Assembly: GCA_045863575.1 (NCBI GenBank)
Contig: BTUC01000002.1
Coordinates: forward strand, 10,726 to 40,546
Reading direction: 5' to 3'
Source of the DNA: Phycisphaerae bacterium
GTDB taxonomy: Bacteria > Planctomycetota > Phycisphaerae > UBA1845 > PWPN01
Length of the DNA stretch: 29,821 nt
Shown: positions 6,916 to 29,821 of the stretch, piece after piece
How positions within the stretch are numbered: the stretch's first letter is position 1
How the letters are laid out: each line of letters starts with the position of its first letter
Made by a program: the position numbers and the translations under genes
The notes under the pieces: model-generated
Told to the model about the DNA's origin: nothing
Seen by the model: the letters and a program-made list of their open reading frames with translations, nothing else
The model's database searches: none

Positions 6916-7113
6916 AGCCGATCAGGGACGCCTTCTCGTCGAACCGTGGGCAACTGCCCTAAATCCACTTACACCGCAAAATAGACATTAAAACCTATTT
7001 ACCTGACCATAGGCATCAGGTACACTCCCCACCGACGCGGGATTCTGGCCATTCGGTTGGCGCGGTAACCACCGGCCCAGCCCGCTCTTGTCTATTGTTC
7101 TGGAGACGACAGC

Positions 7114-8469
7114 ATGATGCTCCGCCGTCTGCCCTGCCTGTTGGGCGTTCTGCTCACAACGAGTCTGGCTTACGCCCAGGAAACGATCCAGGAACCTCCG
7201 GACGCGCCAGTACCGACCACCAAGCCGGCGGCCGCACCCTCTCCCTGGGAGCGCCAGTTTCTGACCGGCGACTGGGATGGAGCGCGCACCGAGTTGGCCG
7301 AAAAGGGCCTCACCTTCAACCTGAATATCACGCAAATCCTGCAAGGGAATGCCCACGGCGGGCACCGCACGCGCGACGGGATCAAGTACTCCGGCTCTGG
7401 CGATCTGACCATCACGGCCGACACCGGCAAGATGGACCTGTGGCCGGGCGGCCTGCTGCTGCTCAATGCCGAACCCAAGTGGGGCGACGGCGTCAACGAA
7501 ATGGTCGGTTCACTGCTGCCGGTGAACACCGATGCCGCCAGGCCTGGCCTCAACGAAGGCTGCGCCATGACGCTGTCCGAGTGGATCTACTTCCAGCACC
7601 TGCTGGAGAACAAGCTGATCCTCATCGCCGGCAAGCTGGACGGAGCCCGCGCGTTCGACCGTAACGTGTTCGCCAACGACGAGCGGACGCAGTTCATGAA
7701 CGCGGGGCTGCGCAACAACATGATCATCCCGGCGTTCCTGCCGTACACCAACCTGGGCGCGGGAGCCGTGGTGAACCCGACCGAGTGGCTGTCGATCATC
7801 ACGGCCGTGGCCGACACCGAGGGTCGGAACAAGACGACGGGATTCGAAACCACGTTCCACGGGCCGACAAACACGACGGTTATTCACGAGTGGTCTTTCA
7901 AGATCAAGCCCTTCGACCTGCCGGGTAACCAGCGCTTCGGCTTCGTCTGGAGTTCCATGGATTTCGAGCACCTCCAACCGCCGTCGCCCTTCAAGGAGAC
8001 CGGTCCCCTGATGATGTCGCTCCTGGGGCCGAACCTGGCCAACAAGGTCGTGCGCATGCTCACGAAGTTCGACACCAGCCCGGACAACGTGGGCCTCTAC
8101 TACAATTTCGACCAGTACCTCTACACGGAGGAAGGCTGTCCGGACCAGGGTGTGGGCCTCTTCGGCCGCTTCGGATGGGCACGCGGCGACGTGAATGCCC
8201 TGGAGTACTTCTACAGCATCGGCATGGGGGGCAAGGGTGTCCTGCCGGACCGCGACGAAGACACGTTCGGCATCGGCTACTTCCACGCGAATCTCAGCGA
8301 CGACCTGCCGTCGTTCCTCCAACAGGAAGCCGGCGTGGAGATGTACTACAACATCCAGATCTGCCCCTGGCTGCACATCTCGCCGGACGTGCAGGTCATC
8401 ATGGATCCGGGCGGATTCAGCAACGAGTGCTCGCTGGTCTACGGCATCCGCATGCAGTTGAACCTGTAA
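7114..8469 (+). CDS. carbohydrate-selective porin, OprB family (outer-membrane beta-barrel)
   Basis: 451 aa. Signal peptide MMLRRLPCLLGVLLTTSLAYAQE. The family-typical N-terminal motif LTGDWDGARTELAEKGLTFNL matches the OprB 'GDWGG.R..L...G' start. Alternating amphipathic beta-strand pattern throughout. GGAGA box 8 nt upstream of the ATG. Located directly downstream of the secreted GH. Confidence 0.65.
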   Translation: MMLRRLPCLLGVLLTTSLAYAQETIQEPPDAPVPTTKPAAAPSPWERQFLTGDWDGARTELAEKGLTFNLNITQILQGNAHGGHRTRDGIKYSGSGDLTITADTGKMDLWPGGLLLLNAEPKWGDGVNEMVGSLLPVNTDAARPGLNEGCAMTLSEWIYFQHLLENKLILIAGKLDGARAFDRNVFANDERTQFMNAGLRNNMIIPAFLPYTNLGAGAVVNPTEWLSIITAVADTEGRNKTTGFETTFHGPTNTTVIHEWSFKIKPFDLPGNQRFGFVWSSMDFEHLQPPSPFKETGPLMMSLLGPNLANKVVRMLTKFDTSPDNVGLYYNFDQYLYTEEGCPDQGVGLFGRFGWARGDVNALEYFYSIGMGGKGVLPDRDEDTFGIGYFHANLSDDLPSFLQQEAGVEMYYNIQICPWLHISPDVQVIMDPGGFSNECSLVYGIRMQLNL

Positions 8470-8652
8470 TCAGACCGGCTGCAGAACTCCCAGCAGCACG
8501 CTGGAGAGGACGGTGGCCACCGTGTCACTGATGCCGCCGAAGACACCGTCCAGAACGGCGTCTCCCGCCTGACAACCTGTCGAGAAACCCAGGAGCAGCA
8601 CGGCCGCAATCGCCAGTGCTGCTCTTCGTCCATATGGGAATCGTATCTTCAT
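8470..8652 (-). CDS. small lipoprotein (about 60 aa) with lipobox
   Basis: The inner start of track ORF 8470..8772 is MKIRFPYGRRAALAIAAVLLLGFSTGCQAGDAVL..., a signal peptide plus lipobox (LGFSTG|C). It is preceded on the minus strand by a strong SD, AAGGAGGAGAACCG-ATG. Its stop TGA (8470-8472) abuts the OprB stop TAA (8467-8469). Confidence 0.55.
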   Translation of the reverse strand: MKIRFPYGRRAALAIAAVLLLGFSTGCQAGDAVLDGVFGGISDTVATVLSSVLLGVLQPV

Positions 8653-8872
8653 CGGTTCTCCTCCTTGTGTTCGCCTGCTGAGGCCCCGCCCCATCCTACG
8701 CGAGGACGGCTGGCGCCTCCAGCCTGCTGGTCCAGGCTGGTCCGCACAAGAGACAAAGCCCCGTTCTCTCACTACGAACGGCCGCGCGGGCTGAAGCCCG
8801 CGGCTCCTTGCTTACGGTTTCGGTGGACCTGTTCAGCCGGTATGATGGGCTCGTTACCGGAGACGACTGGCC

Positions 8873-10147
8873 GTGGTCAAAGTCCAATGCCCCCATTGTC
8901 AGCGCCGCTACCGCACGAAGGTCGAAGCCTTCGGCGTCACCGCCGTATGTACCAAGTGCCATCGCGCGTTCAAGATCGGCGAATCGCGCCCCCCCTTCGC
9001 GTGGAAGAGCCAGGATCTGGCCGAAGACTCGTGGATCGGCGTGCCGCCGCCCGAAGAACGCCAGGAGATGAAGCACTGCATCATCTGCGATGCTCCCCTG
9101 CCGCCCGAGGCGCTGCGCTGCCCCGAATGCGGAGCCAACCAGGTCACCGGCGTCGTCCACCGCTCGCGGACGCAGATTACCGAGGAGAAGATCCCCTTTG
9201 GGGCCATGCTGCCGTGGCGGTCGATTACCGTAGTCGCCGTTCTGCTCGTCCTGGGGTTGGGCGTCTACTGGGGCATTCGGGCCATCAGCCGCAGCGCCCA
9301 GCAATTGGGAGACGAGGTCGCTGACACCACATTGGCAACCCAGGTCGCGCGGCAGCTCCGTGACGGCGCGGACGAGTACCTGCTGGCGGAGAAACACGTC
9401 GGCGCGGTCAGCGACGCGAACCTGCCGCGCCTCGTCGGGATGCTCTCCGCACGCGACCCGTACATCCGACGGGCGGCCATCCTGCTGATTGGAGCCGGCC
9501 GGGCGACTCAACTCGAATCGCTCGTGGCCGCAGCTCGTTCGGAATCGGTTGACAGCGCCCGTGCCGCCCGAGACGCGCTGCTGGCCTTCGGGCCCCGGCA
9601 GCTGACAACATTGAGTAACCACGCAGACAGCAGCGTGCGTCAATCCGCCGCCACGGCCCTGGTGCTGCTGTTCGGGCTGGATCAGGCGGTGATTGCGCGC
9701 CTCTCCGAGCCCTCCTCCGATGCCGAGAAGATCCAACGCCTCAATGAGCTCTGCCGGCCATGGCCGCTGCTGACCGGCGGCTTCCACCTCCTGATTGCGG
9801 ACACCCCCGCTCCATTCGCTGTCCAGGTCCAGCAAGTCGGCAAGGTGTTCTACCTCAAAGCGGGCACAGGCCAGTTCATGACGCCCGATCCGCAGGAGCG
9901 GCGATTCCTCATCCCGCTGCACCGCTGGTGCCTGGCCACAGGTTCCGCAGTGGATCCAGAGCGCGTGCGGGAACTGATTGACGGCACCGTCCAACTGGCC
10001 GCACCGGTGGGTGCTGCCTGGGAAGGTCAGGTGCAGGTCAGCGCCAAAACGGTGATCCGCGGCCCTCTGCCTGGGTTCCTGCCCATCGAGCCGCCCCAAC
10101 CAGGCCGGACCGCCGAAGCGCCCATGGAACTGATCCGACCGGGTTAG
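8873..10147 (+). CDS. double zinc-ribbon (MJ0042-type) / single-TM / HEAT-repeat protein
   Basis: 424 aa with a GTG start. CPHCQRRYR...CTKCHRAF and CIICDA...CPECGAN Zn-ribbons, one TM helix (ITVVAVLLVLGLGVYWGI), then PBS-lyase/HEAT-like repeats (DPYIRRAAILLIGAG..., DSSVRQSAATALVLL). The overlapping 487-aa minus-strand ORF is low-complexity R/G-rich and was rejected. Confidence 0.7.
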   Translation: MVKVQCPHCQRRYRTKVEAFGVTAVCTKCHRAFKIGESRPPFAWKSQDLAEDSWIGVPPPEERQEMKHCIICDAPLPPEALRCPECGANQVTGVVHRSRTQITEEKIPFGAMLPWRSITVVAVLLVLGLGVYWGIRAISRSAQQLGDEVADTTLATQVARQLRDGADEYLLAEKHVGAVSDANLPRLVGMLSARDPYIRRAAILLIGAGRATQLESLVAAARSESVDSARAARDALLAFGPRQLTTLSNHADSSVRQSAATALVLLFGLDQAVIARLSEPSSDAEKIQRLNELCRPWPLLTGGFHLLIADTPAPFAVQVQQVGKVFYLKAGTGQFMTPDPQERRFLIPLHRWCLATGSAVDPERVRELIDGTVQLAAPVGAAWEGQVQVSAKTVIRGPLPGFLPIEPPQPGRTAEAPMELIRPG

Positions 10148-10185
10148 AGCCCCTTTCACTTCCTCAGTTCCGCAACGCCAGCTCT

Positions 10186-10215
10186 CCCCCCCTTTCCAAG
10201 GGGGGGGCGGGGGGG
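10186..10215. other. C7-TTTCCAA-G8-C-G7 element: GC hairpin / G-tract motif in the intergenic region after the 8873 gene
   Basis: The sequence ctCCCCCCCtttccaaGGGGGGGGcGGGGGGGta is seen directly. It forms a 9-bp stem (ccccccctt/aaggggggg) with a 3-nt loop, and contains two G-runs of 7 or more. No U-tract follows on either strand. Confidence 0.3.
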
Positions 10216-10429
10216 TATCGGACGACGCCGGGCTCGAATTCGCGGCCGGTGATTCGTGCGCGCAATGGCCGGCAGGGACACCGGCCGCTACGGAACTGGC
10301 GGGTTGGAGTGGACGAAAGAAGTCCGGGCAGTCCGCCAGAAGAAGCCGGGTATAAAGATGCCCCCCGATTCTAATTGCGGACTATGCCGATGAACTTTAT
10401 GGTTCAACTGGCAACAGACCGGGGTACGG

Positions 10430-10551
10430 CACGTGGCCACACGTGACCTGATGCGGGTGGCGTCACCCGCCCCGGGAGTGCGACCCGCGTATTGCGGAGG
10501 TCGGCTCTCCCGGCGACAATGGAAGATGGGGGTTGCGGATGTGGTCACGTG
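10430..10551. promoter_or_regulatory. cluster of three CACGTG palindromes (two spaced 10 bp apart, the third about 100 bp downstream in inverted GTCACGTG orientation) upstream of the NfeD-flotillin operon
   Basis: ggCACGTGgccaCACGTGAcc at 10430-10447 and GTCACGTGcc at 10544-10551, seen directly. CACGTGAC and GTCACGTG are reverse complements. The region also holds an AT-rich TATAAA-containing patch (about 10350-10420). Confidence 0.3.
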
Positions 10552-10584
10552 CCGGTTGCCACCGCTGGCAGAAAGGGGTGACCT

Positions 10585-11331
10585 GTGGTTTCCTCCCAAA
10601 TGCTGGCCCAGAGCGCCTCGCTCTTCGCCTGGTACAACGCCGTGTTCGTCGTGTTCTTCGGCGTGGGACTCTTCTTCACTCTGCTCCAGTTGATCGGCCT
10701 GGGAGGCGAAGGCGGCGTCGATGCGGATGCCGATGTGGACGTCGACGCGGATGTGGATGTGGATGCCGATGTTGACGCGGACGTGGATGCCGATGGGGAT
10801 ATCGACGCCGGTGCGGATGCCGATGGGGACATGGATGCCCACGCAGGCGCCGCGGTCGCCCATGTCCCCAGCCTGGTCGGGACGGCGGCGCAGCTCTTCG
10901 GCCTGGGCAAGATTCCCCTGTCCATGTCGCTCATGCTGCTCTGCTACACCGCGGGAGTCGTCGGGTGGCTGAGCAACAGCTTGTTCGTGGAACGCGGCAT
11001 GGACGTGGCCAGCCTGTTCCCCGTCAGTCTGCTCATCGCGCTGATGGCCGGCTTCGTCGTACTGCGCGCGGTAGGCTCTCTCATGAGCCGTTACCTGCCC
11101 TCGTTCTCCACGACAGCTATCGATAAGCGACAACTGGTGGGCATGACCGCCAAGGCGACCCTACCGGTGAACGAGAAGTTCGGCCAGGCTTCGCTCTTCG
11201 ACAAGCACGGAACGCTGCACGTGGTGGGTTGCCGCGTGCGGACCGGAGCCCCATCGATCGAGAAAGGCAGTCAGATCGTGCTGATCCGGTACATTTCCGA
11301 ACGCGACCTGTTCGTCGTCGGACGAGCATGA
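10585..11331 (+). CDS. NfeD-like membrane protein (YuaF/YqeZ short-form NfeD with C-terminal OB-fold), containing an acidic DV/DA repeat linker
   Basis: 248 aa (GTG at 10585; alternative ATG at 10600 giving MLAQSASLF...). Two N-terminal TM helices. The C-terminal segment QLVGMTAKATLPVNEKFGQASLFDKHGTLHVVGCRVRTGAPSIEKGSQIVLIRYISERDLFVV matches the NfeD OB-fold beta-barrel. It lies immediately upstream of a flotillin gene, the conserved nfeD-floT pairing. Confidence 0.7.
   Translation: MVSSQMLAQSASLFAWYNAVFVVFFGVGLFFTLLQLIGLGGEGGVDADADVDVDADVDVDADVDADVDADGDIDAGADADGDMDAHAGAAVAHVPSLVGTAAQLFGLGKIPLSMSLMLLCYTAGVVGWLSNSLFVERGMDVASLFPVSLLIALMAGFVVLRAVGSLMSRYLPSFSTTAIDKRQLVGMTAKATLPVNEKFGQASLFDKHGTLHVVGCRVRTGAPSIEKGSQIVLIRYISERDLFVVGRA
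10717..10838 (+). repeat. in-frame hexanucleotide tandem repeat (GAT-GYS)n encoding (D-A/V)n acidic dipeptide repeat inside the NfeD-like gene
   Basis: gtcgatgcggatgccgatgtggacgtcgacgcggatgtggatgtggatgccgatgttgacgcggacgtggatgccgatggggatatcgacgcc... encodes VDADADVDVDADVDVDADVDADVDADGDIDAGADADGDMDA. About 20 imperfect 6-nt units. Confidence 0.8.
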
Positions 11332-11399
11332 GCAAGTGAGCATACGGCGGGAGCTTGTGGCGCGGATACGTGGATGAGATTTCGAGAGGAGGCAGCGAC

Positions 11400-13373
11400 A
11401 TGCAAGTATTCACCGGCATCGTGTTCCTCGGCATGGCCCTGATCGTTCTACCGATCGTACTCGAGGATCAGTTCGGGGCTTACCGGTGGGTCCTGATTCC
11501 GCTGGGAGCGGCGCTGCTGGTGATCAGCACGTTCTGCCTGCTGATCGCGCGCTTCTATCGCAAGCCGGCCGCGAATCAGGCCTATGTGCGGACCGGCATG
11601 GGTTCCGCCAAGGTGATCCTGGACGGCGGCGCCTTCGTCATCCCGGTCGTGCACCAGCTCGTCGAGGTGAGCATGGAAACCATGCGCCTCGACGTCAAGC
11701 GCGTCGGGCAGGACGCCCTGATCACGCGTGACAATCTCCGCGTGGACATCGCCAGCGAGTTCTACATTCGCGTGGACGCGAACAAGGAGGCGATCCTTCA
11801 AGCCGCCCGGTCGCTGGGTGAGAAGAGTGTCAACGCCCAGGCTGTCTCCGATCTGGTCTACGAGAAACTGGTCAGCGCTCTGCGCAGCGTGGCCGCCACC
11901 AAGGATCTGCTCGAGCTGCACGTCAAGCGCGATGAATTCGCTTCGGCGGTGCTCGAGAACCTGACCTCCGACCTCCTGCAGAACGGTCTCAAGCTGGAAA
12001 CGGTGACCATCAGCCAGCTCGACCAGACGCCGCCGGAGAGCCTGAACGAACGCAACGTTTTCGACGCCCAGGGGCTCCGCAAAATTACCGAAATCACGCA
12101 GTCTCAGAACGTCGAGCGCAACCGGATCAACCGGGACGCCGAGCGGCAGATCAAGGAAAAGGACGTCGGCATCCGCAAGGAGGTCCTGGGGCTGGAGAAG
12201 GACCAGGCGGAGGCCGAGGCCATGCAGGCCACCGAGATCGCGAACATCAAGGCGGCCAAGCTTCGCGAACAGCAGGAGTACGAGATCCAGCAGCGCCGCG
12301 AGGTCGAACTGGCGGCCGTGCAGAAAGACGAGGCCGTCAAGAGAGCGGAGATTCTCAAGAACCAGTCGGTACAGGTCGCGGACGTGGAGCGGGAACGACA
12401 GGTTAAAACGCAGATGGTTGTGCGCGACCAGAAAGTGCAGGAGGCCGAGGCCGCGCGTCAGCAGGCGGTCGAGGTCGCCAAGCGTCTGGCCGAAATCGCC
12501 ATCGCCGAGAAGGAAGCCGCCCGGGCGGCCGCCGAGGCCAAGGCCAAGGCCGCCGAGTCCGAGCGCGAAAAAGAGGCGCAGAATGTCCAGACCGTGGCGG
12601 TGACCGCCGAGGCCGACCGCGAAGCGCAGAAGAAGATGATCGAGGAGAAGCAGCAGGTGGACGTGGCCAGGTACCGCCAGCAGATTGAGGCCGACGTCGC
12701 CGCTTACACCCAGGTCAAGAAGGCCGAGGGCGAGCTGCAGGCCGCCGAGAAGCAGAAGCAGGCCCGGCTGGTGCTGGCCCAGGCGGACGCCGAGGCCGCC
12801 AAGCGCCGCGCCGAGGGCGACCAGGCCGTCAAGATGGTGGACGTGTCCGTCGATCGCGAGCGCGTGGCCGTCGAGCAGGCCCGCGTCGACGTCGAGCGCA
12901 AGGAACTGGAGAACAAGCAGACCTTCGGCGAGGCGGCCCTCGAGTTCGAGGTCTCCAAGCTGGAGATCCAGGCCAACGCGGAAGTCCAGAAAGCCTTCGC
13001 CCAAGCCATCGGCAACATGCTCTCGCACGCCAACATGCAGATCTTTGGCGACCCGACCACGCTGTCCAACATGGCCGGGCGGTTCATGCAGGCCGCCGGC
13101 TACGGGCAGATGCTCAACGGGCTGAAGGCCTCACTGCCCGAAGACGTGCAGCAGATCGCCGGTCGGGCATTGACCGGAATGGGCGGTTCCCTGGCCGCGG
13201 CATTGCAGAAGGTGACCGGGCAGCACGTCGAACCGGCCGTCCTCGAGAGAGTGATCTCCGAGGTGGTCGCCGATCAGACGGCCCCGCCCGCAGAGGGCAA
13301 CGGCCGGCGCGTGGAGGCAACTCCGGCCAAACCCGAAGCGCCTGCCCGCAAGCAGGAAGAGAAGAAGAGCTGA
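11400..13373 (+). CDS. floT: flotillin-like SPFH/Band-7 protein (FloT/YuaG/YqiK type) with long EA-rich coiled-coil
   Basis: GAGGAGG SD 7 nt upstream of the ATG at 11400 (track start 11355 is probably too long). N-terminal TM anchor, SPFH domain (RTGMGSAKVILDGGAFVIPVVHQLVEVSMETMRLDV...ITRDNLRVDIASEFYIRV), then about 350 aa of E/A/K/Q-rich heptad coiled-coil typical of flotillin. Confidence 0.9.
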   Translation: MQVFTGIVFLGMALIVLPIVLEDQFGAYRWVLIPLGAALLVISTFCLLIARFYRKPAANQAYVRTGMGSAKVILDGGAFVIPVVHQLVEVSMETMRLDVKRVGQDALITRDNLRVDIASEFYIRVDANKEAILQAARSLGEKSVNAQAVSDLVYEKLVSALRSVAATKDLLELHVKRDEFASAVLENLTSDLLQNGLKLETVTISQLDQTPPESLNERNVFDAQGLRKITEITQSQNVERNRINRDAERQIKEKDVGIRKEVLGLEKDQAEAEAMQATEIANIKAAKLREQQEYEIQQRREVELAAVQKDEAVKRAEILKNQSVQVADVERERQVKTQMVVRDQKVQEAEAARQQAVEVAKRLAEIAIAEKEAARAAAEAKAKAAESEREKEAQNVQTVAVTAEADREAQKKMIEEKQQVDVARYRQQIEADVAAYTQVKKAEGELQAAEKQKQARLVLAQADAEAAKRRAEGDQAVKMVDVSVDRERVAVEQARVDVERKELENKQTFGEAALEFEVSKLEIQANAEVQKAFAQAIGNMLSHANMQIFGDPTTLSNMAGRFMQAAGYGQMLNGLKASLPEDVQQIAGRALTGMGGSLAAALQKVTGQHVEPAVLERVISEVVADQTAPPAEGNGRRVEATPAKPEAPARKQEEKKS

Positions 13374-13399
13374 TCGCCCGGAACAAGGCGGCACTCCAA

Positions 13400-13490: not shown

Positions 13491-13687
13491 TCCGCTGGCG
13501 GCGTCAGCCATGCACAAAGGTCCTGGGAAGCGGTTCCAGGCGGAGCGTAACTCGTGGACACCTTGAAACTGCCGAAGACCGGCACGGTATATGTGGACAC
13601 GCAGATCGTGGTGCGGCGAGTCCGCCCCATGTTACAACTCAGGTTGCGGAGAAGAAGTAAACCAGCGACGAGAGACTCCCGGTGCTT

Positions 13688-15256
13688 ATGTCAAGAACGG
13701 CAGGCAGGTTGTTCCTGTTCATCTTGAGCTGTTTCTCAGCGCTGATATCGTCAGCCTGGGCGGATTGGCGGGACGAAATCGGTTATACGGACCTGCGGGC
13801 GCAGTTGGGCGCGGATACGCCAAGCGGTGCAGGCGTTGACGTAGTCCAGGTAGAGGGCAACTACCTTCAGACGCACCGCTTCCTGCCCTCGACCGACGAT
13901 CCTGAGTTCACCGACAAAGCGATCACAGACAGGACCGGTCTCGGTCTGACCTCCACACACGCCACCCAGGTGGCGCGCTACTGCTACGGATTGACCACCA
14001 GCATCGCTCCGGGCATAGACGTCATCGACTGCTACCAGGCGGACCACTGGCTGGAGGATGGTTTCCTGAGAACATTCGGGCTGAATCCACCCCGCATCGA
14101 GTCGAGACGGATCCAGAACCACAGTTGGATCTCGCGTTACTTCAATTGGCAGAAAAATACGGACGCGATTGAGCGTCTGGATCTGGTCATCGACCGCGAT
14201 GGCGTAGTGGCATGCGCCAGCGTCAACAACTACGATCCAGCCGATCCGACGTCTCGCGAAATGCCGGTACTCATGTGCAGCGCGTACAACGGCATCGCCG
14301 TCGGACTGACAAACGGAAAATCCAGCTACGGACCGACCATCACCTATGTATCCGGCCGAAGCAAGCCCGATCTGGTCGCCACTGCGGGTACCCCCCTGAC
14401 CAGCTATGCGACTGCCGTCACCAGTGCTTCGGCGGCCATGCTCGTGGAGGCACAGGAGCGGCTGGGCGTGTTCTCGGATCTGCCCGCACGAGAGCGTCTC
14501 CGGGCAACACCCATGCTGACCAAGTGTCTTCTCATGGGCGGGGCGACAAAACCTGAGGGCTGGAGACCAGGCACCGTTACCCCCCGCACGGACGGGACGA
14601 TCCCCCTCGATTACCGCTACGGGGCCGGCAGCCTCAACATCCACAAGAGTTACAGGATTCTTTCCGCTGGCCAGCACGCGGGCGGGAATGCAGTCGTGGT
14701 GCCATGCACAGGCTGGGACTACGGCCGTATCGCCGCCGCCGAACGGCGCTACTTCCTCGAGATTCCGCAGAACCAGGTGGCCAGCACAATCTCGATCATG
14801 CTGGTCTGGCACCGAAGGATTGCCACCCCGCCGGACCTCGATCGCGACGATGACGTGGATTCCGCCGATCTCGAGATCTTTCGGGCTTGTACGACGGGAG
14901 CCAACGCGGGTCCTTATCCCGCTGAATGCCGGGAGGTGGATTTCGACGATGACGCTGATATCGACCAAAGTGACTTCGGCGTCTTCCAGGTTTGCGTGAG
15001 CGGCGCCGATCAGCCTCCGCCGGTTGCCTGCCGCCGGCGACCAACAGCCAGTCTGGCGAACCTTGACCTGAAACTTTATGCTACCGAGGGGTTCGAACTA
15101 GGAGCACTTCGCGCCCAGAGCATCTCGCCGATCGACAACGTCGAACACATCTACCTTCAGAACGTCTCGTCCGGAAGCTGGGCGATCGTGGTATCCTCCG
15201 ACGGACTCTCGTCCTATGCCCTCACCTGGGATGCTCAACTGACAGTTTCGCCCTGA
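13688..15256 (+). CDS. secreted divergent subtilisin-like (S8) peptidase-like protein with dockerin-like module and an about 80-aa C-terminal extension
   Basis: Signal peptide MSRTAGRLFLFILSCFSALISSAWA (ATG at 13688; track GTG at 13682). S8-like motifs: His box STHATQVARYCYG (compare HGTHVAG), KPDLVATAG (compare KPDIxAPG), Ser box TSYATAVTSASAAM (compare GTSMAAP), C-terminal YRYGAGSLNIHKSY (compare GxGxxNxxxA). The Asp box is not clear. The dockerin-like module at 14834-15021 is DLDRDDDVDSADLEIFRACTTGA...DFDDDADIDQSDFGVFQVCVSGA. Confidence 0.65.
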   Translation: MSRTAGRLFLFILSCFSALISSAWADWRDEIGYTDLRAQLGADTPSGAGVDVVQVEGNYLQTHRFLPSTDDPEFTDKAITDRTGLGLTSTHATQVARYCYGLTTSIAPGIDVIDCYQADHWLEDGFLRTFGLNPPRIESRRIQNHSWISRYFNWQKNTDAIERLDLVIDRDGVVACASVNNYDPADPTSREMPVLMCSAYNGIAVGLTNGKSSYGPTITYVSGRSKPDLVATAGTPLTSYATAVTSASAAMLVEAQERLGVFSDLPARERLRATPMLTKCLLMGGATKPEGWRPGTVTPRTDGTIPLDYRYGAGSLNIHKSYRILSAGQHAGGNAVVVPCTGWDYGRIAAAERRYFLEIPQNQVASTISIMLVWHRRIATPPDLDRDDDVDSADLEIFRACTTGANAGPYPAECREVDFDDDADIDQSDFGVFQVCVSGADQPPPVACRRRPTASLANLDLKLYATEGFELGALRAQSISPIDNVEHIYLQNVSSGSWAIVVSSDGLSSYALTWDAQLTVSP

Positions 15257-15275
15257 GCCGCCGCCACATACGGCG

Positions 15276-16466
15276 TCAAGAGCAATCCGGTTTCCGGCGG
15301 GGCTTCAGCCGGGTCACGGCCATAGCTGCCAAAGCCGCCCAGGCCAGCAACAGCGCACTTGGTTCCGGGGTCTGGTACGATGTGCCCAGATAGGCAACCC
15401 AGGTCACCACCCGCAATGCTTCCGTCGGGCAAAAGCCATACCCCATCAGCATCCGTCCGTCGTCCGAAACACTCAAGGCGTTCATCAGTTCCCAGCCTTC
15501 AACATCCAGGCCTACCTCGGCCAGCACGGCGGAAACCGATCGCAGTCCATGTGCCTTGTCCCACATCAGAGCCCCGTCCGTACCCTCGCCCACAATCACC
15601 GAACCGTCCGATGATACGTCTAACGCTCCGGAGTACACGTGGCCGCCCGGGAGATATCCAAGGCTGACCATCCCTGTTTCCGCTGTCCAACGGAAAGCTT
15701 CGACCCCCAGAGCCGACGTGCCCCTGCCGACAATGACCTTCCCGTCCGCAGAAACGGCCGTCGCCGTACTGCTGAACAACCCTCCGCCAAAGTCGCCGAG
15801 CCCCACCATGCCCTCGGCCGGCGTCCAACGAAAGGCTTCGGAGTACAGTCCGCTCGCGGCGGAGGAGCTCTCTCCCACGACAACCCCGCCGTTCCTGGAA
15901 ACCCCCAAGGCTCGTCCATAGAACCTACCGCCTGGCAATTCGCCAAGTGATTCAATCTGCGGAATCGGCGCATTCCACCGCCACTGAACAGCCTCAGTGC
16001 CGGAGGAAGAGGTGCCGTAGCCGACGAAACTCGCTCCCCCAAAAGCTAACACCTCACTATGAAACGCGCCTCCCGGAAGGTCGCCCAGGCCGATCTGCCG
16101 ATTCTGACCGACCGGCGTAAACATGTACGCTTCCGTGACCCCGGGCTTCGTGCGCGCTCCGACGAAGACATGAGGGGGCCCCGGGCTCACGTCTGTCGGT
16201 CGCCAGTTCGTAAAACCAACTCCCGGTCCAGGGAGGGGGCCGAGACCGTCCGTCGCATTCCATGTCCAGGGGCGGGTAGCGCCTGTGATCGGGTCTTCCG
16301 CCTGCCCGACGACTCGCACGCCATCCGACGAGAGCGCCGTTCCCCACATGTTGGGGTAGCCAGGTAGTTGCCCGACCTCCAAGAGAAAGGGCGGCTCGGC
16401 CGCGACGGTGGCCGCGAAAACCAGCACGATCGCAGCGGTGTGTGGATTCATGAGGCTGCGTGCCAT
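15276..16466 (-). CDS. HAF-repeat extracellular protein with PEP-CTERM sorting signal
   Basis: 396 aa. AGGAGG SD 6 nt upstream of the ATG. Signal peptide, then 5 or more repeats of about 45 aa (G.LPGG..S.A.GVS.DG.VVVG.S...G.EAFRW....GM..LG). C-terminal PEPSALLLAWAALAAMAVTRLKPRRK is a PEP + hydrophobic + basic tail. Confidence 0.8.
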   Translation of the reverse strand: MARSLMNPHTAAIVLVFAATVAAEPPFLLEVGQLPGYPNMWGTALSSDGVRVVGQAEDPITGATRPWTWNATDGLGPLPGPGVGFTNWRPTDVSPGPPHVFVGARTKPGVTEAYMFTPVGQNRQIGLGDLPGGAFHSEVLAFGGASFVGYGTSSSGTEAVQWRWNAPIPQIESLGELPGGRFYGRALGVSRNGGVVVGESSSAASGLYSEAFRWTPAEGMVGLGDFGGGLFSSTATAVSADGKVIVGRGTSALGVEAFRWTAETGMVSLGYLPGGHVYSGALDVSSDGSVIVGEGTDGALMWDKAHGLRSVSAVLAEVGLDVEGWELMNALSVSDDGRMLMGYGFCPTEALRVVTWVAYLGTSYQTPEPSALLLAWAALAAMAVTRLKPRRKPDCS

Positions 16467-23954: not shown

Positions 23955-24345
23955 CTACCGAGGCGCACGAAGTGAATCGCACCTGCTTTCCAGACGCACG
24001 AGGCGGATGACGGCGAGACTCGGGATGCACGTCTGCATGCATCCTGACGAAGTGTTCCGCCCTCCGGAGCATGGCGCGATGAGCGTCACGCGGAAGAAAC
24101 TATCCGTCTGCAGGACTGACCAGCTTCAGCCGGGCCGAGTACGCCGGTTGCATGGGTTCCACGCGTCGCCGACCTGCGGATCACCGCGTTCACATGCCTC
24201 CTCCGGCCCTCGGCCGGTCGCCACGGTTTTTTGAAAGCAACCCGCCTCCGGTGCTGCCGCCCGCGCCCCGGGGAAGCTACGAACTGCGCGCCGCGAGGCG
24301 CCGGCAGAAAACATGGGTCTGCGGACCATAAACGGGAGGATATCC

Positions 24346-27213
24346 ATGAAAGATTCGTTGCCCATAATCGTATTCTCTCATCTGCGGTGGGACTGGGTCT
24401 ATCAGCGCCCCCAGCATCTGATCTCGCGGTTGGCGGCCGGACGCCGTGTCTTCTTTGTCGAGGAACCCCAGCATGAACCAGGCGGCGAAGCGCGATGGAA
24501 CTTCTCCGAACCCGAACCGAACGTCCTCGTCTGCCGGCCTCTCACCCCCGTGGCGGCGCCGGGATTCGCTGATGAGCAGATGCCGGCCCTGCACTGCCTT
24601 TTGAGAGAATTGCGCGAGCGCGCCCATCTCGACGAATACGTCGTGTGGTTCTATACCCCCATGGCCCTTCCCCTGCTCGCGGGGCTCAAGCCGGCCGGCG
24701 TGGTGTACGACTGCATGGATGAGCTTTCGGCGTTCCGTGGCGCGCCGCCCGCACTGCTCGAGCGGGAAGCCGCCCTCTATCATGCGGCAGATGTCGTGTT
24801 CACCGGCGGGCCGAGCCTCTACAAGGCGAAACGCAGCCGCCACCACAACGTGCACTGCTTCCCCAGCAGCGTGGATGCCGCCCATTTTGGGAAGGCCCGC
24901 GGGCTGGCGCAGGAGCCCAAGGACCAGGCGGCGCTGGCCGGTCCGCGCCTGGGCTTCTTCGGCGTCATCGATGAGCGGCTGGACCTTCAGCTTCTGGATG
25001 CCATGGCCAGAGCCCACCCGGACTGGCAGATCTGCATGGTTGGCCCGGTGATCAAGATCGATCCGGGAGTGCTGCCGCGGCACACCAACATCCACTACTT
25101 CGGTCAGCGGCCCTACGAAGCCCTGCCCGGTTATCTGAAGGGTTGGGACGTCTGCCTGCTGCCGTTCGCGCGCAACGAAGCGACTCGGTTTATCAGCCCC
25201 ACGAAGACACTGGAGTACATGGCCGCGGAGAAGCCGATCGTCAGCACGCCGATTACCGACGTGGCCGAGCCCTACGGCCACATCGTCCGCCTGGGTGACG
25301 ACGCGGCCACGTTCATCGCAGCCTGCGAACAGGCGCTCAGCGCCACGCCGGAAGACCGCGCCGCACGAACGGCCGAAATGCGCAAAGTGCTGGCCAGAAC
25401 GTCCTGGGATACGACCGCCCGGGCCATGGCCGATCAGATCGAGGCGGTCGTGGCGGCCCGGCGGACTCTCAGCGCCTCATCCGCCCGGCAGCCCGCCGCC
25501 TCCTCAGACGAATCCGCAGGGCGCGTGGTCGTGGTCGGCGCCGGCCCGACCGGCTTGAGCGCCGCCTACCACCTGGGCTCCGACGCCCTGCTGCTCGAAC
25601 GCAACGAGCGCGTCGGCGGCTGGTGCCGGTCCATTGAGGATGGGGGCTTCACCTTCGATTACGCCGGCCACATCATGTTCTCCAACGACCCCTACGTGCA
25701 CGAACTCTACGAGAAGCTCCTGGGAGACAACGTCCACTGGCAGAACCGCGAGGCCTGGATCTTCAGCAAGGGCGTCTACACACGCTACCCGTTCCAGGGC
25801 GCCCTCTACGGTCTTCCACCTGAGGTGATCAAGGAGTGTATTGTCGGCGCAATTGAGGCACGCTTCGGCCCGATCAGGAAGAAAGCCTCCTCCGGCAATT
25901 CGACCGCTTCCGGCAACGGCAACGGCCGGGAGGCATCCTTGAAGATCGAAGCGCAGGGGGCGACCCCGCCCGCGGGCAACGGCAAAGTCAACGGCAACAA
26001 CGGCCATGCCCCAGGCTCTGCACGAACGACCAATGGCCACTCCAGGCCGCTCGCGGAGACACGCTCAGTTGCCTCCAGCTGCGCGGCTGGTGACGCCAAG
26101 GACTGCTGCGCGGACGGGCTCATGGAGAGTACGGCCCGCCTGGGCAGACCACAGAACACCAACGGCAATGGGAACGGGAACGGGTCGGATGCTTCCGGTG
26201 AGCCTCGAAACTTCGAGGAGTTCATCTATAGGGTGTGGGGCGCGGGCATCGCGAAGCACTTCGCGATTCCCTACAACCGCAAGCTGTGGGCCGTGCCGCT
26301 GACCGAGATGGAAACGTCCTGGCTGGGCGGGCGGGTTCCTCTGCCGGATCTGGAGGAGATGATCGACGGAGCCCTCAAGCCCGTCCCCGCCCCCATGGGT
26401 CCCAACGCGCGGTTCGGCTATCCGCTGCGCGGCGGATTCCAGGCACTCATGAACGGCTTCCTGCCGCACGTGCAGGACCGCCTGCGGCTGAACACAGCGG
26501 TCAAGAGTGTATCGCCCCGTCGCAAGACCATTACCACGCGAGATGGCGAGGAGATCCGCTACGAGTACCTGATCAGCACCATGCCTCTGCCGGTGCTGAT
26601 CGGGAGCATGGGTGACGAGGTGCCCGCATCCGTCCGGCAGGCGGCCGCCGGCTTGCGCTACGTCTCGGTTCGCTGCGTCAACATTGCCGTGGGCCGCGAG
26701 AACCTCACCGAGAAGCATTGGATCTACTACCCCGAGGACACGGTATTCCACCGCATCTTTGTGCAGGGCAATGCCAGTCCTCACTGCAACCGGCCCGGGG
26801 GCTTCGGCTTCACCTGTGAGATCACCTACTCACCGCACAAGCCGCTGCCCTGTGATGGTCAGGACCTGATCCAGCGTTGCATCGACGATTGCCGGCGCGT
26901 CGGCTTCATCCGGGAGGATGACCCCGTCTGGTGCGCGAACCAGGTGGACATGCCGCACGCGTATGTCGTCTACGACCACGGCCGATCGCGGAACGTGAAG
27001 CAGATCCGGGACTGGCTGGAAGAGCAGGACATCCTGCTGGCCGGCCGTTACAGCGAGTGGGAATACTACAACTCAGACCACGCCTTCATCGCCGGCAAGA
27101 AAGCGGCCGACAAGGTCCGGGAGCTCATGGCCGAGAGGTCGAATCGAAGCACTCGCGCCGCGGGGACGAGTCGAGTTCTGTCGGGCAAGGCCACCGCCGG
27201 CACGGGCGTCTGA
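24346..27213 (+). CDS. bifunctional fusion: GT-B glycosyltransferase (GT1/GT4-like) + eukaryotic-type UDP-galactopyranose mutase (UGM/Glf) with N/G-rich loop insertion
   Basis: ATG at 24346 sits 6 nt after GGGAGGA (track start 24313 is probably 11 codons too early). N-terminal 390 aa: IIVFSHLRWDWVYQRPQHLISRLA...EYMAAEKPIVSTP (GT-B E-x7-E). C-terminal about 560 aa align along their whole length with fungal/kinetoplastid UGM, from my recollection of the family, not a search: VVVGAGPTGLSAA, AGHIMFS, YPFQGA, NFEEFIYRVWGAGIAKHFAIPYNRKLWAVPLTEMETSWLGGRVPLPDLE, KHWIYYPED, GRYSEWEYYNSDHAF. An about 115-aa N/G/S-rich insertion (25880-26215; SGNSTASGNGNG...NTNGNGNGNGSD) lies between the ALEAR and FEEF motifs. 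Confidence 0.85.
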   Translation: MKDSLPIIVFSHLRWDWVYQRPQHLISRLAAGRRVFFVEEPQHEPGGEARWNFSEPEPNVLVCRPLTPVAAPGFADEQMPALHCLLRELRERAHLDEYVVWFYTPMALPLLAGLKPAGVVYDCMDELSAFRGAPPALLEREAALYHAADVVFTGGPSLYKAKRSRHHNVHCFPSSVDAAHFGKARGLAQEPKDQAALAGPRLGFFGVIDERLDLQLLDAMARAHPDWQICMVGPVIKIDPGVLPRHTNIHYFGQRPYEALPGYLKGWDVCLLPFARNEATRFISPTKTLEYMAAEKPIVSTPITDVAEPYGHIVRLGDDAATFIAACEQALSATPEDRAARTAEMRKVLARTSWDTTARAMADQIEAVVAARRTLSASSARQPAASSDESAGRVVVVGAGPTGLSAAYHLGSDALLLERNERVGGWCRSIEDGGFTFDYAGHIMFSNDPYVHELYEKLLGDNVHWQNREAWIFSKGVYTRYPFQGALYGLPPEVIKECIVGAIEARFGPIRKKASSGNSTASGNGNGREASLKIEAQGATPPAGNGKVNGNNGHAPGSARTTNGHSRPLAETRSVASSCAAGDAKDCCADGLMESTARLGRPQNTNGNGNGNGSDASGEPRNFEEFIYRVWGAGIAKHFAIPYNRKLWAVPLTEMETSWLGGRVPLPDLEEMIDGALKPVPAPMGPNARFGYPLRGGFQALMNGFLPHVQDRLRLNTAVKSVSPRRKTITTRDGEEIRYEYLISTMPLPVLIGSMGDEVPASVRQAAAGLRYVSVRCVNIAVGRENLTEKHWIYYPEDTVFHRIFVQGNASPHCNRPGGFGFTCEITYSPHKPLPCDGQDLIQRCIDDCRRVGFIREDDPVWCANQVDMPHAYVVYDHGRSRNVKQIRDWLEEQDILLAGRYSEWEYYNSDHAFIAGKKAADKVRELMAERSNRSTRAAGTSRVLSGKATAGTGV

Positions 27214-27244
27214 CCGCTAATCCGTAGCCGACGCAATCGAGCAG

Positions 27245-27266
27245 GAGGGGGCCTCGCGGCCCCCTC
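27245..27266 (+). terminator. GC hairpin (GAGGGGGCC-tcgc-GGCCCCCTC) 32 nt after the GT-UGM stop; a second hairpin (GGGGAGC-N11-GCTCCCC-TCTCTG) lies at 27317-27347
   Basis: Perfect 9-bp stem with a tetraloop, seen directly. No U-tract. Confidence 0.35.
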
Positions 27267-27541
27267 ACTATCACACCATCGGACGTACTCGCCGCACATG
27301 CCTGGCGCGCCGGGAAGGGGAGCAGCTCAAAGCCGCTCCCCTCTCTGCGGAGCTGGAAACGGCACGGCCGGCGGATGCTCAGGCAGAAGCCAGACGTGGG
27401 AAGCTGCAAGCTCATGAGCAGTGCAGAGGCAGGTTCCCGGCAGCGCGAACCGCGCGTATCGCCCGTTGGTAGATTCGGCGCAGTCGGACGCGTCCATGCT
27501 GATGACCCCCGCGGCACTTCAAGTCGGCTTGGCCGTGAAGC

Positions 27542-27841
27542 TCAGGGATGGACAACTTGCCAGCAATCACCGGTTTCCGGACCGTGGTAGAAGGACCTGC
27601 CTTTTAACGGGCCACATATCGCCCTCTTGTCCGTACAGGCCGGCCATTCGCAGAGCTCATAGATGCACTCCGCACATTTTTCAGGATCGTCAGGATAGAT
27701 CTGCCGAACGTCCTCATCGGCCATTTGGCCGGCCTCCTTCGGGCTTGAAGCGCAAATCAGCCAGGCCCAATCGTCGCCAGCAAGTGGGCAAGCTGGATGA
27801 TCTGCCTCCTGTCCCCAGCAAAACACAAGAAACACCTTCAT
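27542..27841 (-). CDS. small Cys-rich hypothetical protein (99 aa) in a lower-GC patch
   Basis: MKVFLVFCWGQEADHPACPLAGDDWAWLICASSPKEAGQMADEDVRQIYPDDPEKCAECIYELCEWPACTDKRAICGPLKG... GAGGT box 6 nt upstream of the ATG on the minus strand. Local GC is visibly lower than in the flanks. The overlapping 166-aa plus-strand ORF is R/P-rich junk. Confidence 0.4.
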   Translation of the reverse strand: MKVFLVFCWGQEADHPACPLAGDDWAWLICASSPKEAGQMADEDVRQIYPDDPEKCAECIYELCEWPACTDKRAICGPLKGRSFYHGPETGDCWQVVHP

Positions 27842-27878
27842 TGGACTACCTCTGCGGAAAGAGCCTACTCACGTTCAT

Positions 27879-28731
27879 CTATCGCCCGAAACAGGATAGC
27901 CTAGCGCCGGGTGTTCCGTAAGCCTGGGTCTTGGTGGTAAGCAGGCAGGTGGTCTCCTGGTAGACCCCCCAGGTCACATCGGCCGTGCCGGGCTCGGCGG
28001 GCCAGGTATCCGCGTTCCACGAGCTGCCACCCTGGAACGTGTGCATTTTCCGTCCGCCGTCCGTACGCGTCGTAATCATAACTGGGTAGCCGTACGTGGT
28101 CGTGGCTGGCCGAGTCCTGTTCGTAGTCGATGGCCCCCTTGGGAACGGCCGTGCGGTACGCCGTCGTGGTGGTCAGCCCGCGGGCGTCGGTCACGCCGGT
28201 CCGCCGGCCCAGTGGATCGTAGGCGTACCGGAACAGCAGCCAGCCAGTCTTGGCGTGATGTGTTTGCAGCAGGCCGTTGCGCGTGACCAGCACCTCATTG
28301 TAGTTCGCGTCCCAGTGATTGACGCTCCGGGTCACCCGCTTGTCGGCCAGGAGCAACGTCTCGGTGGTGATGTTCACGTTGCCGTGAGCATCCTGGACGC
28401 GCGTCTCACCGATCGTGCCTGCCGGGAAGTTGGTCAGCCGCCGTCGCTGGTAAGACGTCGGCGCCGTCCCGCTGTCGTCGGCGTGGACCTGGCTCGAAGT
28501 GGTCAGCCACCAGTCGCTGCCGATCTTCTCGTAAGCGGTTGAGGATGCAGTGATACGGTCGGCCGAGGCGGCGGTCAGATCGCCATCCGGCAGTTGATGG
28601 CCGTAAGGACGAGCCGGGAGGCGCGGGCCACAAGTGGCCCTCGGACCGCCACCGGCAGGGCTACGGCCGGCACGGCGACCTGACCGCGAGGAACTCTTAA
28701 GTGGTGGCGAGAGAGGCCGCGGCCGGGGATC
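27879..28731 (-). pseudogene. Rhs/YD-repeat protein fragment (internal core repeats only; no start codon, frameshifted near 28079)
   Basis: The minus-strand frame is open from the stop at 28732-34 down to 27901 (hand-translated): ...ADRITASSTAYEKIGSDWWLTTSSQVHADDSGTAPTSYQRRRLTNFPAGTIGETRVQDAHGNVNITTETLLLADKRVTRSVNHWDANYNEVLVTRNGLLQTHHAKTGWLLFRYAYDPLGRRTGVTDARGLTTTTAYRTAVPKGAIDYEQDSASHDHVRLPSYDYDAYGRRTEN... shows the YxYDxxGR YD-repeat periodicity. The N-terminal 60 aa are R/P-rich with no ATG. A second frame (27879..28079) continues after a +1 shift. There is no Rhs N-terminal domain, no DPxGL core end and no toxin tip. Confidence 0.5.
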
Positions 28732-28763
28732 TTAGGAAGGCCCCCCGGGCGCCGTGTTGATCA

Positions 28764-29821
28764 TTATCCGCCCGGCGGTGGAGACACCGGCTGAATCTCG
28801 TTCCGCGGAGCCGGCTTAGCGGGGACGGTAAAACGCGACCGAATCTTAGCACAAACCCGATCCGGCTGAAGCAGCTCTGATCCGTGGAGGAACAGCCCCG
28901 GCGGCTCCTTCCTGAAGAGGTAACGCCCCATCAGCCGGATGCACTCGTCGGTGGTCAGGGTCTGCGCCGGAGTCCCTATGGAAGTCTTTGGGGCCACCTC
29001 CCCTTTCAACCGCTCGATCCAAGACTCCACCGCGCCCTCAAGATCTTTGAGTCGTACGGGGGCTGCTGGCTCGATCCGGCCGCCGGATACAAGGAACGCC
29101 TTGATCCAGGTAGTACCAGGACCGCGCTGAACAACGAGGTAACGGAAAGCGTCCATCGGGCGCAGGTGTCGGTAGTCCTCGTGACTTAACTTCGCCGCGC
29201 GCTCGATTCGCTGTTTGAGCGCCGCGGCCCGCTCGAAGGCCAGCTCCGAAGCCGCCGCGCTCATCTGGCGGTGCCACTCGTCCAATGCGGTCGAACGCTG
29301 ACCCGCGGCGAAAGTGAGCGCCTGGCCGATGCTGGCCCGATACGCTTCCATTCCGATGGTGCCGTCACAGGGGGCGGGGCATTTACCCATGTCGAAGTAA
29401 GCGCAGCGCTGGCCGTTCGGCGCCTGGCGAAGCACCTCGTAGTAGCGGCACAAGTCGAACGCATCCTCCAGCAACTCGACCAGCCGGGTGGCCGCAGCCT
29501 GCGTGGGCATCGGTCCCAAGTCCACGCCGGGAGGAGAGCGCAATGCCTTGCCGGGGACAAACCGGGGAAAGGGGGCCTCGACGTCCACGTGCACGAACCA
29601 GCACAGGGGCAGCGCGATGTCCTTGAGATAGCGCGGCGGCATGATCTGACGGGCGATGCGCTGGTGCTCGAAATCCAGCTCGAACATCGAGTGGGCCGGC
29701 CGCCAGCGGATTCGCCGCACGATGGCGCCCAGATCCGCCCGCCGACGCGCGGGGGACGCCGGACCATCCCCGGGATCGCCGCGCAGACGGTTGAGCAGAG
29801 CCCGCCGGAGATCAGCAGCCA
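28764..29821 (-). CDS. UvrC-homolog (Cho-like) GIY-YIG excinuclease, N-terminus outside the window
   Basis: The minus-strand frame stays open from 29720 to the window edge (checked codon by codon), so the track's GTG 'start' at 29720 is internal. UvrB-interaction (UVR) motif MSAAASELAFERAAALKQRIERAAKL. Cys cluster DMGKCPAPCDG. Distal part of GIY-YIG (FELDFEHQRIARQIMPPRYLKDIALP..FPRF). The protein ends about 90 aa after the UVR region with no RNaseH-like/HhH C-terminal half, as in E. coli Cho. Confidence 0.55.
   Translation of the reverse strand, partial: AADLRRALLNRLRGDPGDGPASPARRRADLGAIVRRIRWRPAHSMFELDFEHQRIARQIMPPRYLKDIALPLCWFVHVDVEAPFPRFVPGKALRSPPGVDLGPMPTQAAATRLVELLEDAFDLCRYYEVLRQAPNGQRCAYFDMGKCPAPCDGTIGMEAYRASIGQALTFAAGQRSTALDEWHRQMSAAASELAFERAAALKQRIERAAKLSHEDYRHLRPMDAFRYLVVQRGPGTTWIKAFLVSGGRIEPAAPVRLKDLEGAVESWIERLKGEVAPKTSIGTPAQTLTTDECIRLMGRYLFRKEPPGLFLHGSELLQPDRVCAKIRSRFTVPAKPAPRNEIQPVSPPPGG

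Follow-up and report, generated by a model that had tools for sequence, protein, structure and literature searches.

The 29,821-nt window analysed here, a stretch of contig BTUC01000002.1 from a Phycisphaerae metagenome-assembled genome (MAG) with an overall GC content of ~0.64, carries near its right end a piece of an Rhs/YD-repeat gene followed by a small cysteine-rich open reading frame (ORF). The locus is a real yet ordinary recombination/insertion scar, in which a fragment of an rhs pseudogene is accompanied by a small orphan ORF. Positions 27218-28585, together with a duplicated gene tail of ~102 bp, are probably a strain-specific insertion that left a patchwork of non-functional pieces; the site of the scar is probably the 3′ end of a glycosyltransferase-flavoprotein gene, and the locus is probably no active system. 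An earlier note on this DNA had described the scar of an eroded Rhs toxin-immunity cassette. The scar with its dead Rhs piece, absent from a sister strain, was borne out by the comparisons below, and the toxin-immunity cassette was not.

The insertion was delimited against contig L004 (Logan SRR24881069), which represents a sister strain with ~94-95% DNA identity to the window and which, instead of presenting the same content as intact genes, lacks the insert altogether. In L004 the UvrC_M gene and the glycosyltransferase-flavoprotein gene are convergent and lie 78 bp apart. By blastn, L004 292-1525 aligns with 29821-28586 of the window at 95.2% identity and L004 1499-7648 with 27142-20995 at 94.4%, so that the window exceeds L004 by 1,470 bp at this point, and the window-specific DNA consists of 1,368 bp (27218-28585) plus a second copy of the ~102-bp 3′ tail of the gene. 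Three-way alignment and a repeat scan revealed the last ~102 bp of the glycosyltransferase-flavoprotein gene twice, with a direct repeat at 27184-27217 and 28654-28687 (spacing 1470 bp). Read from left to right, the insert is ordered as a divergent tail copy that ends the gene, a hairpin-bearing spacer, a 327-bp module, a segment in a shifted frame, the YD fragment and the displaced native tail. The features of the region, with the evidence for each in brackets (GC3 is the GC content at third codon positions), are as follows.

24313-27213, plus strand: fusion of a GT1 glycosyltransferase with a flavin adenine dinucleotide (FAD) amine-oxidase-like part, 966 aa, earlier called UGM (Pfam Glyco_trans_1_4, NAD_binding_8 and Amino_oxidase)
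27116-27217, plus strand: left tail copy, divergent, supplying the C-terminus of the gene and its stop codon TGA at 27211-27213 (alignment to L004 and to the right copy)
27218-27541, no strand: non-coding spacer within the insert, with two GC-rich hairpins at 27247-27264 and 27316-27342 (no periodicity, hairpin z-scores)
27542-27841, minus strand: 99-aa ORF, acidic (isoelectric point 4.5), containing 9 Cys and preceded at a distance of 8 nt by a GAGG-type ribosome-binding site (ORF call, one homologue)
27573-27899, minus strand: lower-GC module of 327 bp, comprising a 58 bp leader and codons 1-90 of the small ORF (blastn to contigs L001 and L002)
27900-28045, minus strand: coding-like continuation in frame +1, ~49 codons (GC3 of 0.83, YD-like by eye)
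28046-28585, minus strand: internal Rhs/YD-repeat shell fragment, ~180 codons, 5′-truncated and without a start codon (family matches, alignment to the Rhs of contig L003, GC3)
28586-28687, plus strand: right tail copy, the displaced native 3′ end, a dead remnant with a remnant stop TGA at 28681-28683 (contiguity with the UvrC-like gene in the L004 alignment)
28688-28763, no strand: native intergenic spacer of the convergent genes (~80% identical to the 78-bp L004 spacer)
28764-29821, minus strand: UvrC_M (Cho-like) gene, intact, running off the window end (comparison with the L004 protein P0004)

The two tail copies differ markedly in their relationship to the sister strain. The left copy is ~69% identical to the L004 tail and ~63% identical to the right copy, with its stop codon in the homologous position, and the final ~24-33 codons of the 966-aa gene derive from it, so that the encoded protein ends in ELMAERSNRSTRAAGTSRVLSGKATAGTGV. 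The identity profile to L004 drops from 0.88 to 0.57 past 27132, and the left copy diverges more than any other 60-nt bin of the gene, which favours import over divergence in place. The right copy, ~85-88% identical to the L004 tail and marked by indels, runs on without a break into the native spacer and the UvrC-like gene. It is therefore the displaced native tail, now decaying, and its translation reads RQLMAVRTSREARATSGPRTATGRATAGTAT before the stop versus RQLMAERTSREARAASGARTAPAKATAGTTT in L004. Both tail copies end in the motif GGCG(A/T)(C)CTGACCGC. In addition, a 14-nt inverted repeat (13/14 complementary; 28571-28584 and 28674-28687) brackets the displaced tail exactly at the insert junction, and may represent microhomology used in joining or mere chance.

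A duplicated target tail is also what a site-specific integrative element would have left in the 3′ end of the gene, its own tail copy serving as attL and the native tail as attR, with the integrase and most of the cargo lost later. Flanking direct repeats that derive from the 3′ end of the target gene, an element-side copy that restores the reading frame and stop codon, a native copy displaced whole, the beginning of the repeat included, and a cargo of mixed composition all fit this explanation. However, neither an integrase, an excisionase nor any other mobility gene was found in the insert or the window (for an integrase or recombinase in 27218-28585, no ORF and no Pfam match), the repeats are only ~63% identical, the insert measures just 1.37 kb with a pseudogene directly abutting the would-be attR, and phage, plasmid and viral collections gave no match, which together leave a remnant of such an element an unlikely origin. 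An insertion scar formed by recombination remains the preferred reading, and it is further specified by the identity of the pieces within the insert.

The largest of these pieces lies in a minus-strand frame that is uninterrupted from 28731 to 27901 in the ORF translation. The YD-repeat periodicity that had been noticed in this frame was confirmed by matches above cut-off to Pfam RHS_repeat PF05593 (24.8 bits, cut-off 22, E 2.9e-5) and NCBIfam YD_repeat_2x TIGR01643 (28.6 bits, cut-off 15.8), and two canonical YDxxGR motifs are present, at 28221 and 28074. In a scan of genome contigs with one genome per species a single relative was found, an Rhs protein of 2336 aa encoded on contig L003 of an Opitutaceae MAG. 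The fragment aligned to its residues 1196-1374 (30% identity, E 8e-14), and the motifs EKIGSDWW and D(A/I)HGNV are common to both. The L003 protein is a bona fide Rhs in which RHS_repeat matches four stretches and the Rhs-associated core domain occupies residues 1967-2045, and it served as a positive control for the core model TIGR03696 (90.6 bits). From the respective positions of the aligned residues and the core, the fragment is therefore a mid-shell piece that would lie ~600-770 residues upstream of the core. In L003 itself, the rhs gene (6371-13381) encodes an F5/8 type C (discoidin-like) domain ahead of the YD shell, and the gene after it (13678-15690) encodes an OLD-family protein with AAA_15 and a TOPRIM nuclease, with no obvious small immunity gene.

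The open frame is Rhs-derived over part of its length: 28585-28046 is Rhs sequence, and 28586-28731 is the antisense of the displaced tail and the native spacer. YD homology begins at the junction 28585, where a start codon is absent, as the earlier note had stated for the fragment as a whole. The note's further observation that the Rhs N-terminal region and the DPxGL/toxin tip are missing also held: ~180 codons align to residues 1196-1374 of 2336 aa only, TIGR03696 gave no match at E<=1 for either frame, the motif DPxG[LWIVM] does not occur in 27143-28763 in any of six frames, and searches of Pfam, NCBIfam and PHROGs revealed no recognisable toxin domain between the YD repeats and the small ORF. 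The Rhs piece is probably a pseudogene, unable to form a shell, to be secreted or to deliver a toxin. A tblastn search with the full-length L003 Rhs revealed no further Rhs-like sequence in the window, and a PDB sequence search with the fragment returned sub-threshold matches alone, to teneurin and Rhs (E 0.15-0.6). A search for the rhs donor in a protein word index (5.8 billion clusters, the MAG's own NCBI proteins included) retrieved only the MAG's own 158-aa entry, and a metagenome-contig scan for the donor retrieved nothing. This entry is the NCBI annotation of part of the fragment, hypothetical protein AMXMBFR13_00630 (ORF 27901-28377, GTG start at 28377), an open frame with a GC3 of 0.78 whose protein cluster has one member.

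Codon-position GC revealed a change of frame within the piece. GC3 amounts to 0.81-0.86 in frame 0 (28047-28585) and to 0.83 in frame +1 (27900-28046), and this switch in periodicity supports the +1 frameshift that had been proposed, with a corrected site. The last recognisable frame-0 motif stops at ~28048 and an A4 run occupies 28049-28046, which places the shift nearer 28050-28040 than the originally suggested 28079, with the A-run as its likely position. Downstream of it, local alignment of 27900-28045 to the L003 Rhs was no better than that of shuffled sequences (z -0.3), so an Rhs origin of the frame +1 segment is plausible and no firmer than that. The 56-aa frame +1 continuation has no match in Pfam, NCBIfam or PHROGs, and stops 20 nt inside the 327-bp module.

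That module and the ORF within it differ in composition from their surroundings. The drop in GC that had been remarked upon for the 99-aa Cys-rich ORF (27542-27841) was reproduced, with 0.56-0.59 in the small-ORF region versus 0.63-0.70 in the flanks, and the GC3 of the ORF is 0.59 versus 0.78-0.82 in host genes. By blastn, contigs L001 and L002 match the 327-bp module along its whole length at 93.9% identity, with abrupt divergence at both flanks. In that context the module is preceded by an IS200/RAYT-like gene (Pfam Y1_Tnp, E 0.0014, below cut-off) and is convergent with a UDG gene, and Rhs sequence is absent from both contigs. L002 and the sister-strain contig L004 originate from one sample. 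In L002 the IS200/RAYT-like transposase gene fragment, at 2-523, precedes the small-ORF region, which is flanked by a 17-nt inverted repeat (15/17; 515-531 and 1144-1160) with no counterpart in the window; the repeat and the transposase fragment hint at a small mobile unit, the repeat being statistically not compelling.

Searches of the word index and an exhaustive HMMER search of 1.84 billion representatives yielded a sole true homologue of the 99-aa ORF among ~15 billion proteins, P0002, which is 91% identical. A second candidate, P0003 (2164 aa), was rejected as spurious on account of its low-complexity FECKLDxGDWAACTSP repeat, and metagenome and viral scans revealed no more copies. Look-ups by exact sequence for proteins of the window gave no record. 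All eight cysteines (8/8) in the part shared by the ORF and P0002 are conserved. The changed codons comprise 6 synonymous and 9 non-synonymous ones, with a ratio of non-synonymous to synonymous rates (dN/dS) of ~0.35 (binomial p=0.06). On this sequence evidence, it is plausible that the ORF is coding; it is possibly a real orphan gene and may, putatively, still be expressed. The ORF and P0002 part ways at residue 91, ahead of both stop codons, and at least one of the two copies is therefore 3′-truncated. Pfam, NCBIfam, PHROGs and PADLOC gave no match to the ORF, and an AlphaFold2 (AF2) model was uninformative, with a predicted local distance difference test score (pLDDT) of 49.4. The NCBI protein set of the MAG appears to be without the ORF, as the search returned the JGI/Logan homologue only, though the adjacent 158-aa piece is annotated. 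There is a slim chance that the module is a tiny mobile or recombining cassette with a new acidic Cys-rich (CxxCx4Cx4Cx6C) protein of ~100 aa under selection in Phycisphaerae, possibly a new orphan immunity or anti-toxin family that spreads from locus to locus without a toxin gene.

The 99-aa ORF had also been placed where rhs loci keep immunity or orphan genes. Position is the sole link, and an immunity role is unsupported, since the one homologue stands in an unrelated, Rhs-free context and no family library, and no known immunity family, gave a match. The broader explanation to which this belongs takes the locus as an eroded canonical polymorphic-toxin locus, the remnant of an rhs toxin or orphan rhs-CT, with the ORF as a cognate or orphan immunity gene retained for protection from the toxins of neighbours. 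A genuine YD fragment does lie directly upstream of a small acidic ORF on the same strand, in keeping with the small ORFs that commonly come after rhs genes (PMC3150448), and the GAGG ribosome-binding site, the conserved cysteines and the dN/dS of ~0.35 would suit a retained gene, as would an atypical GC content resembling that of horizontally exchanged immunity genes. Against this, DPxGL, Rhs_assc_core and any recognisable toxin domain are missing between the YD repeats and the ORF, the fragment is mid-shell instead of the core end, and the only other copy of the ORF follows an IS200/RAYT-like gene and is preceded by neither Rhs nor toxin sequence. The two contexts become homologous just 58 bp before the ATG, so the ORF does not travel with any toxin tip; the divergence of the two copies before their stops, with at least one truncated, and the lack of an immunity-family match weigh in the same direction. 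A decayed toxin-immunity locus is accordingly considered quite unlikely.

The remainder of the insert is a spacer. Some 355 bp (27218-27572) are unique to the window, the upper ~30 bp of which are the small ORF's own non-shared 3′ end. No coding periodicity was detected in any frame of 27218-27541 by codon-position GC, and a 130-aa ORF within the spacer has no Pfam match. The two hairpins display z-scores of -4.8/-5.1 and about -3, with free energies (dG) of -23 to -28 kcal/mol and no U-tracts. They are probably bidirectional terminators for the convergent genes that were overlooked by the consensus terminator scan; the promoter and terminator consensus scans found nothing, and a scan of Rfam gave no match.

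Both flanking genes were compared with their counterparts in L004. The 966-aa protein is 94.7% identical to its orthologue over 964 aa. The UDP-GALP_mutase model scores 23.9 bits on it, far below the cut-off of 303.75, and the name UGM is therefore not established. Its amine-oxidase-like domain is split by an Asn/Gly/Ser-rich low-complexity insertion (NGNGNG..., ~110 aa, window ~25900-26230). Across 24313-27213 the identity to L004 is mosaic, 78-100% per 60-nt bin, with divergent patches at 24493-24792, 26353-26412 and 26593-26712, which suggests frequent homologous recombination with divergent alleles in the population. A search with the UvrC-like protein had retrieved P0004 and, with it, contig L004. 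The two proteins share 96% identity across the 318 listed residues in full, and since the C-terminus is the same and the frame is open to the window edge at 29821, the gene is not shortened, contrary to what had been supposed. What the event did alter is the glycosyltransferase-flavoprotein gene, the 3′ tail of which was duplicated and replaced. Homologues of the UvrC-like protein (P0004-P0123) carry PF27096 (UvrC_M), and more than 800 are found at E<=1e-10. This family is large in Planctomycetota/Phycisphaerae, with proteins of 380-450 aa that contain the N-terminal UvrC half only (a GIY-YIG-like start, a Cys-rich region and a UVR motif).

A probable history of the scar can be put together from these comparisons. 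The DNA would have entered by recombination with a more divergent donor relative, in which a tail of the orthologous gene preceded the spacer, then the small ORF and finally an rhs gene. One junction would have been a homologous crossover in the gene tail, near 27116-27142; the other would have been illegitimate, at 28585/28586, with a break inside the rhs gene. The YD fragment's host-like GC3 and long open frame speak for a young pseudogene, and with ~37% difference between the two tails this agrees better with import than with an old duplication.

Several points weigh against this account. Its polarity is unproven, as the outgroups (52-56% identity between UvrC-like orthologues) have different downstream synteny and are uninformative, and the insert could be ancestral and have been deleted in the L004 lineage via recombination between the tail repeats. 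The donor was absent from every collection searched (genome and metagenome contigs, viral, plasmid and phage), and the whole insert had no blastn match in the plasmid and phage collections. The junctions, like the one-base change of frame at the A-run, are those of a MAG assembly. The host-like GC3 and long open frame that the YD fragment still has argue that this pseudogene is young, or conceivably still translated, and the small ORF displays slight indications of purifying selection (p ~0.06), by which the insert is not wholly inert.

The dependence on the assembly raises the question of a chimera, in which the tail, spacer, small ORF and part of the rhs gene of a second, more divergent population would have been stitched into the backbone of the sister strain. 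The source is a short-read MAG, the exact 99-aa and 158-aa products are recorded on no other contig, and the mosaic identity of the gene indicates that divergent alleles co-exist. The junction sequences nevertheless make this unlikely: at 28585/28586 the rhs fragment and the tail have no long k-mer in common and display only the 14-nt inverted match, and the displaced tail and spacer carry the extra divergence and indels of a real decaying remnant. Overall, a chimera was given very little credence. Least of all can the 158-aa ORF (GTG 28377 to 27901) be regarded as a functional stand-alone small YD-repeat protein, which is highly improbable despite its open frame, host-like GC3 of 0.78 and NCBI annotation, because its final ~48 residues are an Arg-rich out-of-frame read with GC3 periodicity in the other frame after ~28046, YD homology reaches upstream of the GTG to 28585, its protein cluster has one member, and the two-repeat piece is too small for an Rhs shell. 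Structures of Rhs and Tc-toxin shells indicate that such a two-repeat piece cannot build one.

As an insertion scar, the locus is of small importance beyond its correct annotation. In the annotation of the MAG, the 158-aa hypothetical protein is better labelled as a fragment of an rhs pseudogene. Of all the elements, only the orphan Cys-rich ORF might be worth experimental follow-up. The region also offers a clean, small case of Planctomycetota gene 3′ ends being remodelled via recombination with divergent relatives, and illustrates that rhs sequence can end up as inert debris outside rhs loci.

Among known systems, integrative elements that target gene 3′ ends resemble the locus in that the target tail is duplicated around the insert, as attL and attR, and the insert-borne copy keeps the gene intact. 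They differ from it in that the locus is without an integrase or mobility gene, its repeats are ~63% identical, and the insert is tiny and consists of pseudogene pieces.

Orphan rhs-CT/rhsI modules retain the core up to PxxxxDPxGL, followed by a C-terminal (CT) toxin and an immunity gene, and are situated behind an rhs gene of full length (Poole et al. 2011, PMC3150448). Such modules and the "silent cassettes" described with them (PMC3150448) share with the locus a promoterless rhs fragment followed by a small ORF on the same strand, in an arrangement that varies between strains. In contrast, the window piece is mid-shell without a tip, the upstream gene is UvrC_M and no rhs gene is nearby, the small ORF is found elsewhere without rhs, and the protein collection includes no Rhs-related protein of this MAG besides its own 158-aa entry. 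With the small downstream ORF as the only hallmark in common, the locus is therefore not a canonical rhs-CT/rhsI cassette.

A likeness also exists to the Rhs/YD-repeat polymorphic toxins themselves, represented by the L003 Rhs, E. coli RhsA and the TcB/TcC shells of Tc toxins. Of their more than 1,200 codons the locus retains ~180-230, with one frame change, and lacks the N-terminal/delivery domain, the core, DPxGL, the toxin tip and a start codon. What it does retain, namely YDxxGR motifs, matches to PF05593 and TIGR01643, and 30% identity collinear with an internal shell segment of the L003 Rhs, identifies the fragment as homologous to Rhs proteins but unable to work as one.

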